Part shown: piece by piece, positions 1,801 to 6,534 of the stretch
Layout: each line of letters opens with the position of its first letter
Position numbering within the stretch: the first letter of the stretch is position 1
Assembly: GCA_944386725.1 (NCBI GenBank)
Contig: CALXCE010000005.1
Location: 10,331-74,330 of the forward strand
Direction of reading: 5' to 3'
DNA length: 64,000 bases
From: an uncultured Clostridia bacterium
GTDB lineage: Bacteria > Bacillota > Clostridia > TANB77 > CAG-508
Program-made: the position numbers and the translations under genes
Notes under the pieces: model-generated
What the model saw: only the letters and a program-made list of their open reading frames with translations
What the model was told of the DNA's origin: nothing
Databases searched by the model: none

Positions 1801-1921
1801 TTTGAAAAATAATTGCCATTTGGCGTTGTTGCACTTCATTTTCAATTTAATCAACGTACCTTAAGTACGCCTCATAAATTGAAAACTCGTGCGCCTAGCC
1901 AAATAACAATTCTTTTCCAAA
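1801..1921. repeat. Nested 121-nt hairpin element (family D, copy 1) in the dnaG-rpoD spacer
   Basis: Outer stem TTTGAAAAATAATT (1801-1814) pairs with AATTCTTTTCCAAA (1908-1921). Inner stems are ttttcaattta/taaattgaaaa and cgtac/gtacg. The same outer stem recurs at 5772-5820 and 55844-55874. Confidence 0.75.
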
Positions 1922-1956
1922 CTGGTTTGAGAGATTTAGAAAGGAAGGATTCAATA

Positions 1957-3318
1957 ATGGCAAAGAAAAAAGAAGAGGCAGAAAAAGTGGAAGGAATGAA
2001 AGAGCCAAATAAAGAGTCAGTAGAAGAGAAAAAGAAAATACTAAAAAATGAGGAAGAAAAAACAAAAACAGTAAAGGAGAATATTACAAAAAAAGAAGAA
2101 ACGAAAAAAAAGAGAAAGAAAGAAAAAATAGAAGTGGTAAGAAAAATAGCAAAACAAAAGTTAGAGGATAAAAAAGAAGTAAACAAAAAAAATAGAGATG
2201 AACAAACAGAAAAAGCAATAGAAGATGGAGTAAATAATAAATTAAAAGAAGAGAAAGTAAATAATATTCTAAAAAAGGCAAAAGAAAAAGGTCAAATTAC
2301 TTACGGGGATTTAGCAACTGAATTAGATGATGTAAATCCAGAACAAATTGATCAGGTTTTTGATGCTTTTGAAGAATTGGGAGTTGATTTATTATCCGAT
2401 GATTTAGACGAAGAGCCAGACATTGAAGATTTAAAAGAAGTAGAAGAATTAAAATTGGATGATATAAACGATACCAACTATGAAGGAATTAATGTTGATG
2501 ATCCTGTTAGAATGTATTTAAGAGAAATTGGAAGAATACCTCTTTTAACCTTTGAACAAGAATTAGACTTAGCAAAGAAAGTCTTAGATGGTGATGAAGA
2601 AGCAAAACAACAATTAGCAGAATCAAATTTGAGATTAGTAGTAAGTATTGCAAAAAAATATGTAGGTAGAGGAATGTTATTTTTAGACTTAATCCAAGAA
2701 GGGAATATGGGATTAATCAAAGCAGTTGAAAAGTTTGATTATACAAAAGGATTTAAATTTAGCACATATGCAACTTGGTGGATTAGACAAGCTATTACAA
2801 GAGCTATTGCTGACCAAGCAAGAACGATAAGAATTCCTGTACACATGGTAGAAACAATAAACAAATTAATTAGAACTTCAAGGCATCTGTTACAGCAATT
2901 AGGCAGAGAGCCAACCCCAGATGAGATAGCAGTAGAAATGGAAATACCTGTTGAAAAAGTAATGGAAATTCAGAAAATAGCACAAGATCCAGTATCCCTA
3001 GAAACTCCAATCGGAGAAGAAGATGATAGTCATTTAGGAGATTTTATACAAGATGATGATAGTCCAGCACCACATGATTCAGCAGCTTACACCTTATTAA
3101 AAGAACAATTAGAGGATGTTATGAATACTTTAACACCTAGAGAGGCAAAAGTGTTAAAGTTAAGGTTTGGTCTAGAAGATGGAAAGGCTAGAACCCTAGA
3201 AGAAGTAGGTCGTGAGTTTGAAGTAACACGTGAGAGAATTAGACAAATTGAAGCAAAGGCTCTAAGAAAGTTAAGACATCCAAGTAGGAGTAAGAAGTTG
3301 CGTGACTACATGGGCTAA
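1957..3318 (+). CDS. rpoD: RNA polymerase primary sigma factor (sigma-70/SigA)
   Basis: Conserved regions 2-4 ([73 protein letters not shown]...[15 protein letters not shown]...[30 protein letters not shown]). Start moved to ATG 1957 (AGGAAGGA RBS); the upstream part of the tracked ORF runs through the hairpin repeat. Confidence 0.95.
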
Positions 3319-4395
3319 ATGGAGGAGAAGATGGAACAAATTACTAGTTTAATAGAAAATATAACAACAGCACAAGTAGTTGATATATTAATTGCAGTTG
3401 GAATTATTCTATTTTTTAGAATTTTTAGTAGTGGCTTTTCATATATCATTATTAGAATGTTTAAAATAAGAGAAAAAAAACAAAAAAGAATAAAAGAAAG
3501 TGCTTTTTATAGTCCATTAAAAATATTTTTTATTATATTAGGATTTTACTTAGCTGTTGTATTTTTAAAAAAACCATTGAATATAACAGAAGAAATAATG
3601 GATGTTGCTTATAAAGCATTTATCATAATTAGTACGATTGCTTTTGCAAAAGGATTAGCAGCAAGTTTTACACCGAAATCTTCTTTATATAAAAGGTTAA
3701 AGGAAAAGACAAGTAAAAATGTAGAAGACTCTATGTTTGACTTTATTTTAAAAATTATTCGAGGAATCATCTATATCATTGCAGGTTTTATTGTGATAAC
3801 AGCATTAGGCATTAACTTAAATGGTTTAGTGGCAGGGTTAGGAATAGGAGGTATTATCGTTACTCTTGCTGCTCAAGATACGGCAAAGAATTTGTTTGCT
3901 GGATTAGTGGTCTTTTTAGACAAACCTTTTGCAGTAGGAGATTGGATTCAATTGGATACATTTGAAGGAACAGTAGAGGATATAACATTTAGAAGTACAA
4001 GAGTAAGAACTTTTGAAAATGCCTTACTGAATGTACCAAATTCTATGATAGCCAATGCCTCTATCATCAATTGGAGTAAAATGGAAAAAAGAAGATATCA
4101 AACTAATTTGTGTATTCAATTAGATACACCATTAGAAAAACTAGAAAAATTCAAAACTAGAGTACAAGATATGTTGCAAGCAAGAGATGCTATCTATGAT
4201 GATTCTATTATTGTTAAGTTCGATAATATTACAAATAATGGACTAAATGTGCTGATTTGTAGTTATACAAATTCGGTCGATTATACAAGCTATATAGCAG
4301 AAAAAGAAAATATCAATTGTAAAATTATGAAGATTTTAAGAGAAGAAAATATAGAGCTTGCTTATGATAGCAAAACAGTTTATGTGAAAAAATAA
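3319..4395 (+). CDS. MscS-family mechanosensitive ion channel
   Basis: 358 aa with N-terminal TM helices and an MscS core signature GIGGIIVTLAAQDTAKNLFAGLVVFLDKPFAVGDWIQL. Confidence 0.85.
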   Translation: MEEKMEQITSLIENITTAQVVDILIAVGIILFFRIFSSGFSYIIIRMFKIREKKQKRIKESAFYSPLKIFFIILGFYLAVVFLKKPLNITEEIMDVAYKAFIIISTIAFAKGLAASFTPKSSLYKRLKEKTSKNVEDSMFDFILKIIRGIIYIIAGFIVITALGINLNGLVAGLGIGGIIVTLAAQDTAKNLFAGLVVFLDKPFAVGDWIQLDTFEGTVEDITFRSTRVRTFENALLNVPNSMIANASIINWSKMEKRRYQTNLCIQLDTPLEKLEKFKTRVQDMLQARDAIYDDSIIVKFDNITNNGLNVLICSYTNSVDYTSYIAEKENINCKIMKILREENIELAYDSKTVYVKK

Positions 4396-4457: not shown

Positions 4458-5552
4458 TTAATCGTCGATTGAGATATCATTTACACCAAATAAAGATTTA
4501 AGAAAAGTTTTGCTAAAAAATTTTGAACAGTTAATTCTTAAATTATTACATCCATCAAAAGTACTATCACCAATCTTGGTCACACTATCAGGAATAGTGA
4601 TGCTTTTTAAAGATGTGCAACCAATAAAAGCACGATTACCAATCTTGGTTACACTATCCGGGATAGTGATGCTTTCTAAAGATGTGCAGCCAGCAAAAGC
4701 ATACTGATCAATCTCGGTTACACTATTAGGGATAGTAATGCTTTCCAAAGACGTACAATCACCAAAAGTACAATTACCAATTTTGGTTATACTATCCGGG
4801 ATAGTGATGCTTTCCAAAGATGTGCAACCAGCAAAAGCATACTGATCAATCTCGGTTACACTATCAGAGATAGTGATGCTTTCCAAAAATGTGCAATCAC
4901 CAAAAGCATAATTACCAATTTTGGTTACACTATTAGGGATGGTAATGTTTTTTAAAGATGTGCATTCTTTAAAAGCATAAGCATCAATTTCGGTTACACT
5001 ATCCGGGATAGTGATGCTTTCTAAAGATGTGCAACCACTAAAAGCACTATCACCAATCTTAGTTACACTATCAGGAATAGTGATGTTTTTTAAAGATATG
5101 CATTCTTTAAAAGCATAAGCATCAATTTCGGTTACACTATCAGGGATAGTAATGTTTTCCAAAAATATGCAACCACTAAAAGTACAATTACCAATCTTAG
5201 TTACACTATCAGGGATGGTAATGTTTTTTAAAGATGTACAACCACTAAAAGCACAATTACCAATCTTGATTACACTATTAGGGATAGTGATGTTTTCCAA
5301 AGACGTGCAACCACTAAAAGCACAATAACCAATCTCGGTTACACTATTTGGAATAGTGATGTTCTTTAAAGATGTGCATGCAGTGAAGGCACTATAACCA
5401 ATCTTGGTCACACTATTAGGAATAGTGATGCTTTTTAAATTTTGGAATTTATAAAAAGCATGCTTTTCAATGTGAGTAATCCCATTTGGTAAGCTTACAT
5501 CATTTTTTCTCCGATATTTTTTGGTTCGTTTTTGTGTTAAAGTTGTGTTCAT
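4458..5552 (-). CDS. BspA-type leucine-rich-repeat protein (tandem 23-aa repeats)
   Basis: 364 aa built from about 13 copies of ITIP(N/D)SVT(K/E)IGxxAFxGCTSL(K/E)N. No N-terminal hydrophobic signal. Codon 14 is an in-frame CGG (see findings), so expression as annotated is uncertain. Confidence 0.65.
   Translation of the reverse strand: MNTTLTQKRTKKYRRKNDVSLPNGITHIEKHAFYKFQNLKSITIPNSVTKIGYSAFTACTSLKNITIPNSVTEIGYCAFSGCTSLENITIPNSVIKIGNCAFSGCTSLKNITIPDSVTKIGNCTFSGCIFLENITIPDSVTEIDAYAFKECISLKNITIPDSVTKIGDSAFSGCTSLESITIPDSVTEIDAYAFKECTSLKNITIPNSVTKIGNYAFGDCTFLESITISDSVTEIDQYAFAGCTSLESITIPDSITKIGNCTFGDCTSLESITIPNSVTEIDQYAFAGCTSLESITIPDSVTKIGNRAFIGCTSLKSITIPDSVTKIGDSTFDGCNNLRINCSKFFSKTFLKSLFGVNDISIDD
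4560..5440. repeat. 69-bp tandem coding repeats of the LRR gene
   Basis: Near-identical 69-nt units are visible directly in the DNA (e.g. ...accaatcttggt(t/c)acactat(c/t)(a/c)gg(a/g)atagtgatg...). This is a coding periodicity, not a CRISPR array (no unique spacers). Confidence 0.8.
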
Positions 5553-5771
5553 ATTGAAAAACCTCCTAAAAATTTTTTAGATAATTGTTATTATATAAGA
5601 TATCTCAATCGTTTGATAGATTCTTACTTAAATTAATCTATTCTTCAACAATTATCTTACCAATATTATAACATAATCAACATAATTGTGCAAAAATTTT
5701 TCTATTTTTGTTCACGATATAGACATAATTACTAGTTATAATATATAATATAAAAAATACAGTAGTAAAGA

Positions 5772-5820
5772 TTGAAAAATAATTGGCATTTGCTTAGCTA
5801 AATATCCAATTCTTTTCCAA
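5772..5820. repeat. Family D hairpin element, copy 2 (5' UTR of the response regulator)
   Basis: TTGAAAAATAATT...AATTCTTTTCCAA with a 22-nt loop. The loop is homologous to the stem-proximal part of copy 1 (aattGGCATTTGC/aattGCCATTTGG). Confidence 0.7.
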
Positions 5821-5859
5821 TCAGATTTGTGCCTTAAGAAAGGAATGGAGTGATAAAAA

Positions 5860-6534
5860 ATGGATAATTGTATTTTAGTAGTAGATGATGAAGAAAGAAT
5901 GAGAAAACTGATTAAAGACTTTTTAAAAGCAAAAGGATATAGTATTATAGAGGCAGAAGATGGAGAAAAAGCTTTAGAAGTATTTGAAGGAAACAAAAAC
6001 AAAATTACACTTATCTTATTAGATGTAATGATGCCAAAATTGGATGGATGGTCTGTACTTCGTCAAATTAGGCAAGAATCTAAAATACCTATTATAATGC
6101 TTACAGCAAGAGGAGAAGAACAAGATGAATTATTCGGATTTGAATTAGGTGTGGATGAATATATTTCAAAGCCATTTAGCCCTAAAATATTAGTGGCAAG
6201 AGTAGAAGCAATTTTAAAGAGAACTACCAAAAATACAACAGAAGTAAAAGACTATGCTGGTATCGAAATTGATAAAGAAGGAAGAACGGTAAAAGTAGAC
6301 GGAAAAGCCATTGAGCTTAGCTTGCGAGAATATGAGCTTTTAATTTATTTAATCGAAAATGAAAATATAGCTTTATCAAGAGATAAGATTTTAAATAATG
6401 TATGGAATTATGATTATTATGGGGATTCTAGAACGATTGATAGTCATATAAAAAAAATAAGGCACAAATTGGGGAAAAAGGGTAAATATATCAAAACCAT
6501 GAGAGGTGTTGGTTATAAGTTTGAAGTCAAATAA
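5860..6534 (+). CDS. OmpR-family response regulator
   Basis: Receiver domain (ILVVDDEE...LILLDVMMPKLDGW) plus winged-helix output (LSLREYELLIYL...TIDSHIKKIRHKL...IKTMRGVGYKF). Confidence 0.9.
   Translation: MDNCILVVDDEERMRKLIKDFLKAKGYSIIEAEDGEKALEVFEGNKNKITLILLDVMMPKLDGWSVLRQIRQESKIPIIMLTARGEEQDELFGFELGVDEYISKPFSPKILVARVEAILKRTTKNTTEVKDYAGIEIDKEGRTVKVDGKAIELSLREYELLIYLIENENIALSRDKILNNVWNYDYYGDSRTIDSHIKKIRHKLGKKGKYIKTMRGVGYKFEVK

Follow-up and report, generated by a model that had tools for sequence, protein, structure and literature searches.

Three hairpins at gene starts

The window analysed here is a stretch of 64,000 nucleotides (nt) from an uncultured Clostridia bacterium (contig CALXCE010000005.1, a metagenome scaffold, ENA ERZ28614461; ~29% G+C), in which three hairpins built on one outer stem lie co-oriented on the + strand, within 64 kb, in the leaders of rpoD, a response regulator gene and purM. 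Near-identical DNA is present in chicken gut metagenomes, and the few named homologues of the window's RpoD and PurM all come from metagenome-assembled genomes (MAGs) called 'Clostridia bacterium'. An earlier note on this DNA had described the hairpins as three nested sizes of one leader element; they are found where it placed them, with the same outer stem, GTTTGAAAAATAAT(T)/(A)ATT(C/A)TTTTCCAAAC, and the same A–C mismatch in all three. Copies that carry ATTCTTTT in the 3' arm also have a U–C mismatch.

Copy 1 is a full-length hairpin of 123 nt (1800–1922, + strand) in the 162-nt dnaG–rpoD spacer. Its stem, GTTTGAAAAATAATT/AATTCTTTTCCAAAC, encloses ~93–96 nt that are themselves self-complementary, and the whole comprises five helices (P1–P5) with the conserved internal-loop motifs GGCGTTGT / GCCTAGCC and TCAACGTAC..GTACGCCTCA, at an RNA minimum free energy of −39.1 kcal/mol (z = −4.3); a family profile (nhmmer) matches it over model positions 1–124 with 98.9 bits. 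The tail that follows (1923–1956, +) carries a Shine–Dalgarno sequence (SD), AGAAAGGAAGG, at 1938–1948, 8 nt from the rpoD ATG at 1957, and GTTTGA at 1925–1930 within this tail repeats the first bases of the hairpin (1800–1805).

Copy 2, a medium form in the response regulator leader (5770–5822, +), keeps P1 and most of P2, the apex being gone; ~22–26 nt separate its arms, and the P2-like stem is closed by the short loop CTTAG. Its tail (5823–5847, +) has the canonical form AGATTTGTGCCTTAAGAAAGGAATG, followed by a native-type GAGTGATAAAAA and the ATG at 5860. Copy 3, in the purM leader (55843–55875, +), is a minimal form reduced to P1 with a loop of 3–5 nt; its tail (55876–55905, +) contains the SD AGAAAGGAAAGAG at 55888–55900 and leads directly to the purM ATG at 55906. 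Adjoining the left end of copy 3 is an SD-like AAGGAAGA (55835–55842, +), which takes the form AAGGAG in relatives and probably represents purM's own SD, now displaced.

As the earlier note had also observed, the three tails are alike (CCAAWC..TTT..AGAAAGGAA, where AGAAAGGAA is the SD) and the ATG follows the stem at a near-constant distance of 30–37 nt (34 nt at rpoD, 37 nt at the response regulator, 30 nt at purM); the loop of copy 2 is homologous to the stem-proximal part of copy 1 (TTGGCATTTGC..TTAGCTAAATATCCAA vs TTGCCATTTGGC..CCTAGCCAAATAACAA). Since the other genes of the window use GGAGG-type SDs, the extended SD AGAAAGGAAT can be taken as a signature of the element. No further copy lies within the 64 kb. 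A possible solo tail, AGAAAGGAATGGATTAAAAT (38120–38139, +), stands directly before the ORF (open reading frame) whose ATG is at 38140; it matches the end of the canonical tail exactly, and may be either a hairpin-less remnant or a native look-alike.

Strong promoter-like sites, conserved in relatives, lie ~15 nt before copies 2 and 3. They are predicted as TAGACA-18-TATAAT at 5720–5749, which would put the mRNA 5' end ~13–15 nt before the hairpin of copy 2, and as TTGAAT-17-TATAAT at 55791–55819. Because the element lies between predicted promoters and start codons, and copy 1 inside the dnaG–rpoD operon, it is probably part of the mRNA leader. A contig from an RNA run spans the 3' end of dnaG and the hairpin, as an undirected contig that gives neither strand nor 5' ends; the metatranscriptome runs with this locus attest to its presence, and their contigs are interrupted at the repeats.

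In the mechanical ORF list, an ORF with a TTG start (1813–3318, +; 501 aa) begins inside the hairpin of copy 1, in frame with rpoD; it exemplifies how the element produces spurious upstream TTG starts that mislead start calls. The Lys/Glu-rich N-terminal region of RpoD varies greatly in length among close relatives, the proteins measuring 403–627 aa.

A high-copy family in uncultured gut Clostridia

Scanning species-representative genomes with the 3' arm and tail as query returned 67 loci. About 45 of them belong to gut MAGs labelled uncultured Clostridium, Clostridia or Eubacteriales (from rabbit, mouse, roe deer, sheep and others), with up to 7 matches in a single MAG; the rest are chance matches in unrelated taxa that have no 5' arm. 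Metagenome contigs were scanned with the 5' arm and the next helix alone as query, hence independently of the tail; this gave at least 120 loci, many of them from the human gut. In 1.56 Mb of DNA from related loci (those used for comparison are labelled L followed by a number), an nhmmer profile search made 162 matches, 94 of which are distinct full-length copies. The hosts of these at least 94 copies are uncultured gut Clostridia of chicken, human, rabbit, mouse and ruminant, and as far as could be searched the family is confined to the chromosomes of one such lineage. An origin in phages or plasmids was rejected on zero matches in IMG/VR, the INPHARED phages and the PLSDB plasmids. Rfam holds no match to the element, whether the whole window is scanned at gathering thresholds or two copies are searched at E values up to 10, which gave noise only; nor did literature searches, which yielded reviews of miniature inverted-repeat transposable elements (MITEs) and repetitive extragenic palindromic sequences (REPs), turn up the family in the papers that could be searched. 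In the 1.56 Mb, no larger element bounded by the arms was found, as a parent insertion sequence would be, and a non-exhaustive search of the flanks of hits found no transposase, including Y1 transposases, RAYT and TnpA.

The unit measures ~150–165 nt and consists of an imperfect hairpin of 123–126 nt and a tail of ~25–35 nt that ends in the extended SD. This hairpin length is the commonest form (37 of 61 unique copies in the tail-independent sample), with five helices and conserved internal-loop motifs. Subtype A, to which copy 1 belongs, reads GGCGTTGT...TCAACGTAC-loop-GTACGCCTCA...GCCTAGCC, and subtype B reads GGCTACGTC...GCGGTTACATAC-loop-GTATGCGCC...CCTTGCC. The P1 arms GTTTGAAAAATAATT/AATTCTTTTCCAAAC are terminal inverted repeats that form a long stem-loop, and the SD-bearing tail lies outside them, so that the unit is asymmetric. 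Pairing is retained in 97.9% of the paired cells, and 14 of 31 pairs have changed on both sides in a compensatory manner, including the outermost ones (GTTTG/CAAAC, GATTG/CAATC, GGTTG/CAACC), a degree of pairing that none of 500 shuffles and no slid register approached. The stem is thus conserved and compensated in relatives, the point on which the earlier note had made its case depend. Covariation cannot tell the strands apart, as changes in a palindrome are compensated on either strand and the better fold is that of the untranscribed complement.

The tail, canonically CTGATTTGTGCCTTAAGAAAGGAATG, follows the hairpin in most copies, with divergent tails in some. In metagenomes, contigs of other copies break at positions 1799 and 1922–1924 of copy 1, and contig breaks and depth peaks mark 1799–1924 and 5808–5847 as a high-copy repeat, which indicates that hairpin and tail travel together; the DNA-run contigs matched to copies 2 and 3 are mostly paralogous response-regulator and repeat fragments. 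One locus, present in five metagenome samples (L137, L146, L147, L162, L182), has a tail-less full-length hairpin in reverse orientation, where it separates the SD AAAGGAG from the ATG of an opposite-strand gene, ~140 nt apart.

A terminator scan found no terminator-like site at any copy on either strand. A canonical SD and a TTG at the 5' end had prompted the reading of the unit as a small protein-coding gene, which we rejected since the frame is not conserved: it is open for 27, 35 or 45–48 codons depending on subtype, units of 123, 124, 125 and 126 nt occur, and 1-nt indels are tolerated. Two further arrangements were seen. Some copies of the main hairpin contain a second, separate one, the ~45-nt element CTGAGGCTGTTAAGGCTTTGCCTGTTACAGCCTCAGTATGCA, which is nested at varied positions and in both orientations and gives forms of 172–175 nt (L055:1164–1214, L035:3123–3144, L015:7739–7765, and L101, L157, L167, L172, L186 and the rpoD leader of L201). 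At L183:1069–1500, a tandem array of ~3.5 main-element units with a period of roughly 131 nt contains many small ORFs, and its internal units have ..AGATAGTGGCAATGCTTGGC.. in place of the 5' arm.

Position in translation-initiation regions

In the tail-independent sample, 40 of the 47 unique copies with a recognisable 3' arm (~85%) precede, on their own strand, an SD and a start codon 19–104 nt past the hairpin, 36 of these 40 within 19–45 nt, and the starts open real ORFs. The 62 non-redundant downstream products match 120 Pfam families and form no coherent gene set; among them are DNA polymerase III alpha, DnaB, NAD-dependent DNA ligase, MutS, RNase E/G, PGK, pyruvate kinase, AccA, SufB, the SRP GTPase and FolD (by gene name, they include dnaE, dnaB, pgk, pyk, ligA and mutS). 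Orientation is co-directional with the gene, the tail-less locus described above being the one reverse case known.

On the left side, 23 of 61 unique copies have an SD core at a distance of 3–17 nt from the hairpin (background 7%), and G is enriched at −10 to −7. Beyond this SD-like or A/G-rich bias on the left, no fixed target motif adjoins either end, and neither end has a conserved 4–5-nt target. Insertion points fall before, inside or just past the native SD, or right at the ATG. In many comparisons the native (A)TGAAAA start region falls opposite the 5' arm TTGAAAAATAAT, and the end of the tail resembles a native SD with its spacer, so that both junctions look like translation-initiation regions.

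Filled and empty sites could be compared at seven places: the response regulator, mscS and rpoD, and the pairs L014/L035, L052/L074, L083/L050 and L191/L156. None of the seven shows a consistent target duplication, only short A-rich or microhomology matches; the apparent repeats GGTAAA (L168) and AGTAA (L152) have no empty-site control. In the response regulator leader, L002 and L008 read ..ACAGTAG|GAGTGATAAAGATG (..ACAGTAG|GAGTGAT...), where the window has 84 extra bases (5764–5847). The rpoD–mscS junction is empty in the window (3319–3330), L002 and L197, holds a full subtype-A copy in L005 and L201 and a different, subtype-B-like copy at a slightly shifted position in L202, and has decayed or other content in L200 and L199; the same site is open to independent hits. 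Elsewhere, the unit lies between the native GGAGGTGTAA and the ATG in L014, compared with L035 and L034 (93–94% protein identity); it stands directly before the ATG, with the native SD left upstream, in L052 compared with L074; and it sits just after the SD in L191, compared with L156 and the window gene at 49491. The leader of that window ORF is empty, and its orthologues in L191, L160, L110 and L120 have full-length copies.

Short forms as probable products of erosion

The rpoD leaders of relatives, which the earlier note had singled out for comparison, comprise full, minimal, tail-only and empty alleles. Full hairpin and tail are present in the window and L201, a minimal hairpin with tail in L002, the tail only in L199 and L202 (exactly the tail of copy 1, with the hairpin gone), and further-decayed remnants in L005 and L008. 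The empty alleles (L197, L198, L200) have an 11-nt spacer, TAG|GGGTGAAAATA|ATG, and no tail; because such truly empty alleles exist, the tail-only alleles must be products of deletion. L201 and L202 encode identical RpoD proteins and carry different element subtypes at mscS, and the whole hairpin is missing from the rpoD leader of L202, where the L201 sequence has lost the stretch flanked by direct repeats GT(C/T)TGA, found at the start of the 5' arm and again in the tail. The window has the same repeats at 1800–1805 and 1925–1930.

Across the family, short forms make up a continuum of spacings between the arms (2, 6, 7, 9, 10, 12, 13, 18, 25–33 and 66 nt). Their breakpoints differ and are often asymmetric, some retaining just the 5' or just the 3' inner half, and the inner module was never found without the arms, save for one tandem array lacking the first 12–16 nt. 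Every purM leader examined among relatives has the element, with loops of ~5, 10 or 22 nt or in decayed form (L203, L206, L204, L209), and no full-length copy was found at the response regulator or purM locus in any relative. The erosion of copies 2 and 3 themselves is read from the family-wide pattern: as the 123–126-nt form is the commonest, the inner module never occurs alone, breakpoints vary and L201 and L202 differ by the hairpin, copy 1 is most likely the intact unit, with copies 2 and 3 eroded by apical deletion. The earlier note's proposal that copy 1 equals copy 2 plus a further apical insert is therefore not borne out.

A predicted anti-Shine–Dalgarno arm

The SD of the tail, AGAAAGGA, can pair with 8–9 bases of the 3' end of Firmicute 16S rRNA, and lies 8–10 nt before the ATG, counted from its GGA core. 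The U/C-rich 3' arm, AUUCUUUUC, is complementary to GAAAGGAAU of this SD, and the C residues left mismatched in the stem (A–C, U–C) are those that would pair with its G residues. Folding of 43 full-length copies predicts the SD to be unpaired with a probability of 0.70 in the intact unit, 0.16 in units deprived of their 5' half and 0.83 in an isolated tail, compared with 0.38 and 0.32 in controls with a shuffled 3' half or a shuffled 3' arm, respectively. These predictions suggest that the 5' arm masks an anti-SD latent in the 3' arm, a relationship that would explain why erosion leaves both arms or neither.

Interpretation

We interpret the three hairpins as belonging to an interspersed palindromic repeat of the MITE/REP kind, non-autonomous and high in copy number, which enters translation-initiation regions and then erodes, a reading to which we assign a probability of roughly 0.6. 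Whereas the family-level findings are solid, the mode of spread and any regulatory role are what we infer from them. The unit enters the translation-initiation region of a gene, co-oriented and with no target-site duplication. It would be transcribed within the mRNA leader, where the SD of its tail would take over from the displaced native SD. Its 3' arm, AUUCUUUUC, complementary to that SD, would be kept harmless by pairing with the SD-like 5' arm, and both arms would for that reason be retained or lost together. Internal deletions then erode the unit, leaving apex-less hairpins (most likely including copies 2 and 3), half elements or solo tails that have lost the hairpin. For the gene, the overall effect would be near neutral, or would amount to a stable 5' stem-loop. 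Spread might proceed by homology-assisted recombination, or by an enzyme with a loose gene-start target, in either case using the likeness of both element ends to an SD, spacer and start. The cell might exploit the element, through RNase III cleavage, 5' decay or an upstream ORF (uORF) from the TTG of the 5' arm, the frame of which is not conserved.

The earlier note had offered a transposable or duplicated leader cassette and, alternatively, a conserved regulatory RNA hairpin that tolerates apical growth. The former is supported, in that the apparently mobile unit precedes dozens of unrelated genes and has filled and empty sites. The latter, as worded there, is not supported, given downstream genes that share no function and orthologous leaders of close relatives that are without the element.

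Several observations weigh against an eroding mobile repeat. Neither a transposase nor a target duplication or fixed target motif came to light, so mobility is read solely from presence/absence patterns. The mRNA strand has a weaker fold than its complement (−33.2 vs −44.8 kcal/mol in 26 copies whose arms lie at least 90 nt apart), and over the 94 distinct full-length copies and 40 consensus pairs, positions that are G–U on the complement and A–C on the sense strand outnumber the reverse by 242 to 42; an mRNA-centred account explains only part of this asymmetry. P1 and tail persist at purM in relatives down to 88% protein identity, which could be a sign of selection for a function, not of tolerance. 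All folding results are predictions, the RNA runs are stored as undirected contigs that are not strand-specific and possibly include DNA, and the copies are related by descent, so that the statistics overstate their independence.

A bolder form of the eroding-repeat reading, which we hold to be doubtful, would make the unit a mobile translation-initiation cassette that homes to ribosome-binding sites, swaps the native SD for its own and imposes a conditional anti-SD switch on about a hundred housekeeping genes, rpoD, dnaE and dnaB among them. It would recognise SD, spacer and start by its look-alike ends or with some enzyme, possibly through the better-folding complementary strand as single-stranded DNA, and the switch would be thrown when the 5' arm is cleaved, unwound or translated.

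Most accounts treat small palindromic repeats as passengers in intergenic DNA, frequently located after genes, whereas this family resides almost solely in the SD-to-start region of essential genes, presumably surviving there by virtue of the replacement SD that it brings. Should this be confirmed, the element would be a natural portable ribosome-binding site, would account for part of the leader diversity among strains of abundant uncultured gut Clostridia, and would offer a test case for selfish DNA that rewires translation initiation and possibly co-regulates many genes. In practical terms, the repeat breaks metagenome assemblies at gene starts.

Alternative explanations

The mutually exclusive helices predicted for the leader, with SD accessibility at 0.70 in the intact unit vs 0.16 without its 5' half, beyond the shuffled controls, would also suit a selected cis-regulatory leader, in which a trans-acting factor (a protein, a small RNA or RNase III) or temperature toggles the anti-SD between the 5' arm and the SD. 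Around a hundred housekeeping genes would then be under one translational control, and mobility would merely have assembled the regulon. The pairing of the two P1-mismatched C residues with SD G residues, the conserved internal-loop motifs and the retention of P1 and tail at purM and rpoD across considerable divergence fit such selection, and a canonical SD with a TTG at the 5' arm, seen in ~38% of copies, could drive a uORF through the hairpin. Nevertheless, we regard this as unlikely: the genes downstream have no common function, the same genes do without the element in close relatives, the inner module that bears the conserved loops is freely lost, Rfam has no match, and at ~−33 kcal/mol the intact hairpin is so stable that no switching is predicted unless a factor intervenes.

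The strand asymmetry raises a different question, namely whether the complement is the working strand, either as a single-stranded DNA intermediate (of the HUH/Y1 type or similar) or as an antisense RNA folding with G–T or G–U pairs. Orientation would in that case stem from target recognition on one particular strand, or from the purging of those insertions that gave the mRNA the stronger hairpin. Of the 26 copies whose arms are separated by at least 90 nt (23 full-length, 3 with an extra insert), 25 have the more stable fold on the complement (Wilcoxon p = 6e-8), and target duplication is lacking, as in IS200/IS605 and REP/RAYT systems. Two fixed, inherited positions, however, supply 156 of the 242 antisense G–U pairs, SD complementarity accounting for one of the two; with both left out, the balance is still 86 vs 42. 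Neither end has the conserved 4–5-nt target beside it, no promoter-like motif serves the antisense strand, and the non-exhaustive search revealed no Y1 transposase near copies. The active strand would, moreover, be the leading-strand template of the co-oriented genes, whereas IS200/IS605 elements prefer the lagging strand, the opposite of what is needed here. The asymmetry may reflect a single-stranded DNA or antisense intermediate; alternatively, it may reflect selection for a weaker mRNA hairpin and for a 3' arm complementary to the SD. A working complement strand seems to us quite unlikely.

That the series grew outward from a purM-type minimal stem, successive palindromes being inserted into the loop to yield the 22-nt and then the 93-nt forms, is very improbable. 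The three sizes do have a common outer stem, copy 2 does match the base of copy 1, and the ~45-nt hairpin does insert inside some copies. Yet the full-length architecture is unchanged at more than 90 loci, the inner module never stands alone, the breakpoints are many and asymmetric, some copies keeping only a 5' or 3' inner half, the solo tails of L199 and L202 arise between direct repeats (L201 and L202 having identical RpoD), and truly empty sites are without both stem and tail. Chance similarity of AT-rich leaders, finally, is refuted: although single 12-mers with one mismatch are no rarer in shuffles than in this ~29% G+C genome, the window contains three pairs of arms with one mismatch or none, and of 200 shuffles a single one produced as much as one such pair; the family, too, counts hundreds of members with covariation.

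Comparison with known systems

The element is closest to MITE-type palindromic repeats that are co-transcribed with their neighbours, and the unit is not a REP, an attC site, a riboswitch or a small gene. It is distinguished by near-exclusive residence within ~20 nt of the SD or start codon, fixed orientation, and an SD of its own with a masked anti-SD. By the criteria used for MITEs, it is a small, non-coding, interspersed unit with terminal inverted repeats and insertion polymorphism, lacking target-site duplication. The bcr1 repeats of the Bacillus cereus group and the BOX elements of pneumococcus are of this MITE-like type. Correia/NEMIS in Neisseria, ERIC/IRU in enterobacteria and RUP in pneumococcus are MITE-like repeats as well, with properties reviewed in PMC2229807. 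The present element shares with such repeats a length of 100–200 nt, termini that pair into a long stem-loop, many copies, internally deleted subtypes, co-transcription with adjacent genes and presence/absence between strains. In contrast to them, it has neither a TA or other target duplication nor a known parent insertion sequence, and instead of being merely intergenic it sits at the SD or start (within ~20 nt) in one orientation, bringing an SD and a masked anti-SD.

Rickettsia palindromic elements (RPEs), of ~100–150 nt, lie in critical parts of housekeeping genes and are tolerated as expression is preserved (PMC2229807). Our element likewise settles in critical parts of housekeeping genes, but RPEs are in frame within coding sequence and translated, whereas it is non-coding and lies between SD and start codon. 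REPs are 20–40 nt long with a GTAG or CGTC head (PMC3733652). With REP/REPIN–RAYT systems and IS200/IS605-derived palindrome-associated elements, the element has in common hairpin structure, absence of target duplication, one better-folding strand and high copy number; REPs, however, mostly follow genes, whereas the element is a single 124-nt hairpin that has neither a conserved head nor a tetranucleotide target, and the hit flanks yielded no RAYT or TnpA.

SD-sequestering switches, such as fourU and ROSE thermometers and translational riboswitches, resemble the element in having a U-rich strand complementary to the SD and, going by the predicted folds, mutually exclusive helices. They differ from it in that its predicted default is SD-free and it has no conserved ligand pocket, and in that it is dispensable in close relatives, stands over unrelated genes and decays freely. 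Membership of a riboswitch or other conserved cis-regulatory RNA class is not supported, given the incoherent gene set (62 proteins, 120 Pfam families), the empty orthologous leaders and the missing Rfam match.

Integron attC sites, too, are imperfect palindromes (57–141 nt) right before ORFs, with a variable centre, conserved ends and a better-folding complement. The ends of attC have the polarity RYYYAAC...GTTRRRY. An attC reading was rejected: the ends here, GTTG...CAAC, have the opposite polarity, there are no cassette arrays and no integrase, and single copies stand before scattered housekeeping genes. Empty sites, unlike those expected of attC, differ by the repeat itself only.

Other features of the window

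A glmS ribozyme (87.6 bits) at 48367–48522 on the − strand lies directly upstream of a 612-aa ORF (46478–48316, −), which is presumably glmS, and a tRNA gene is present at 51140–51213 (+). The ORF at 4458–5552 (−) contains at least 12 tandem 69-nt units (4480–5538), 65–83% identical, that encode a 23-aa-repeat protein of 364 aa, for which Pfam hits are not on record; relatives L002, L005 and L008 do not have this gene at the same position. A second small repeat family is represented by two 59-nt copies, 46196–46254 and 50563–50621, which are 85% identical and read GGTGAA.T.GGGACGTTTCTTTTTGC...GGGACACATCTTA.AA, and related GGGAC/GTCCC hairpins occur in the purM–purL spacers of L204 and L206.

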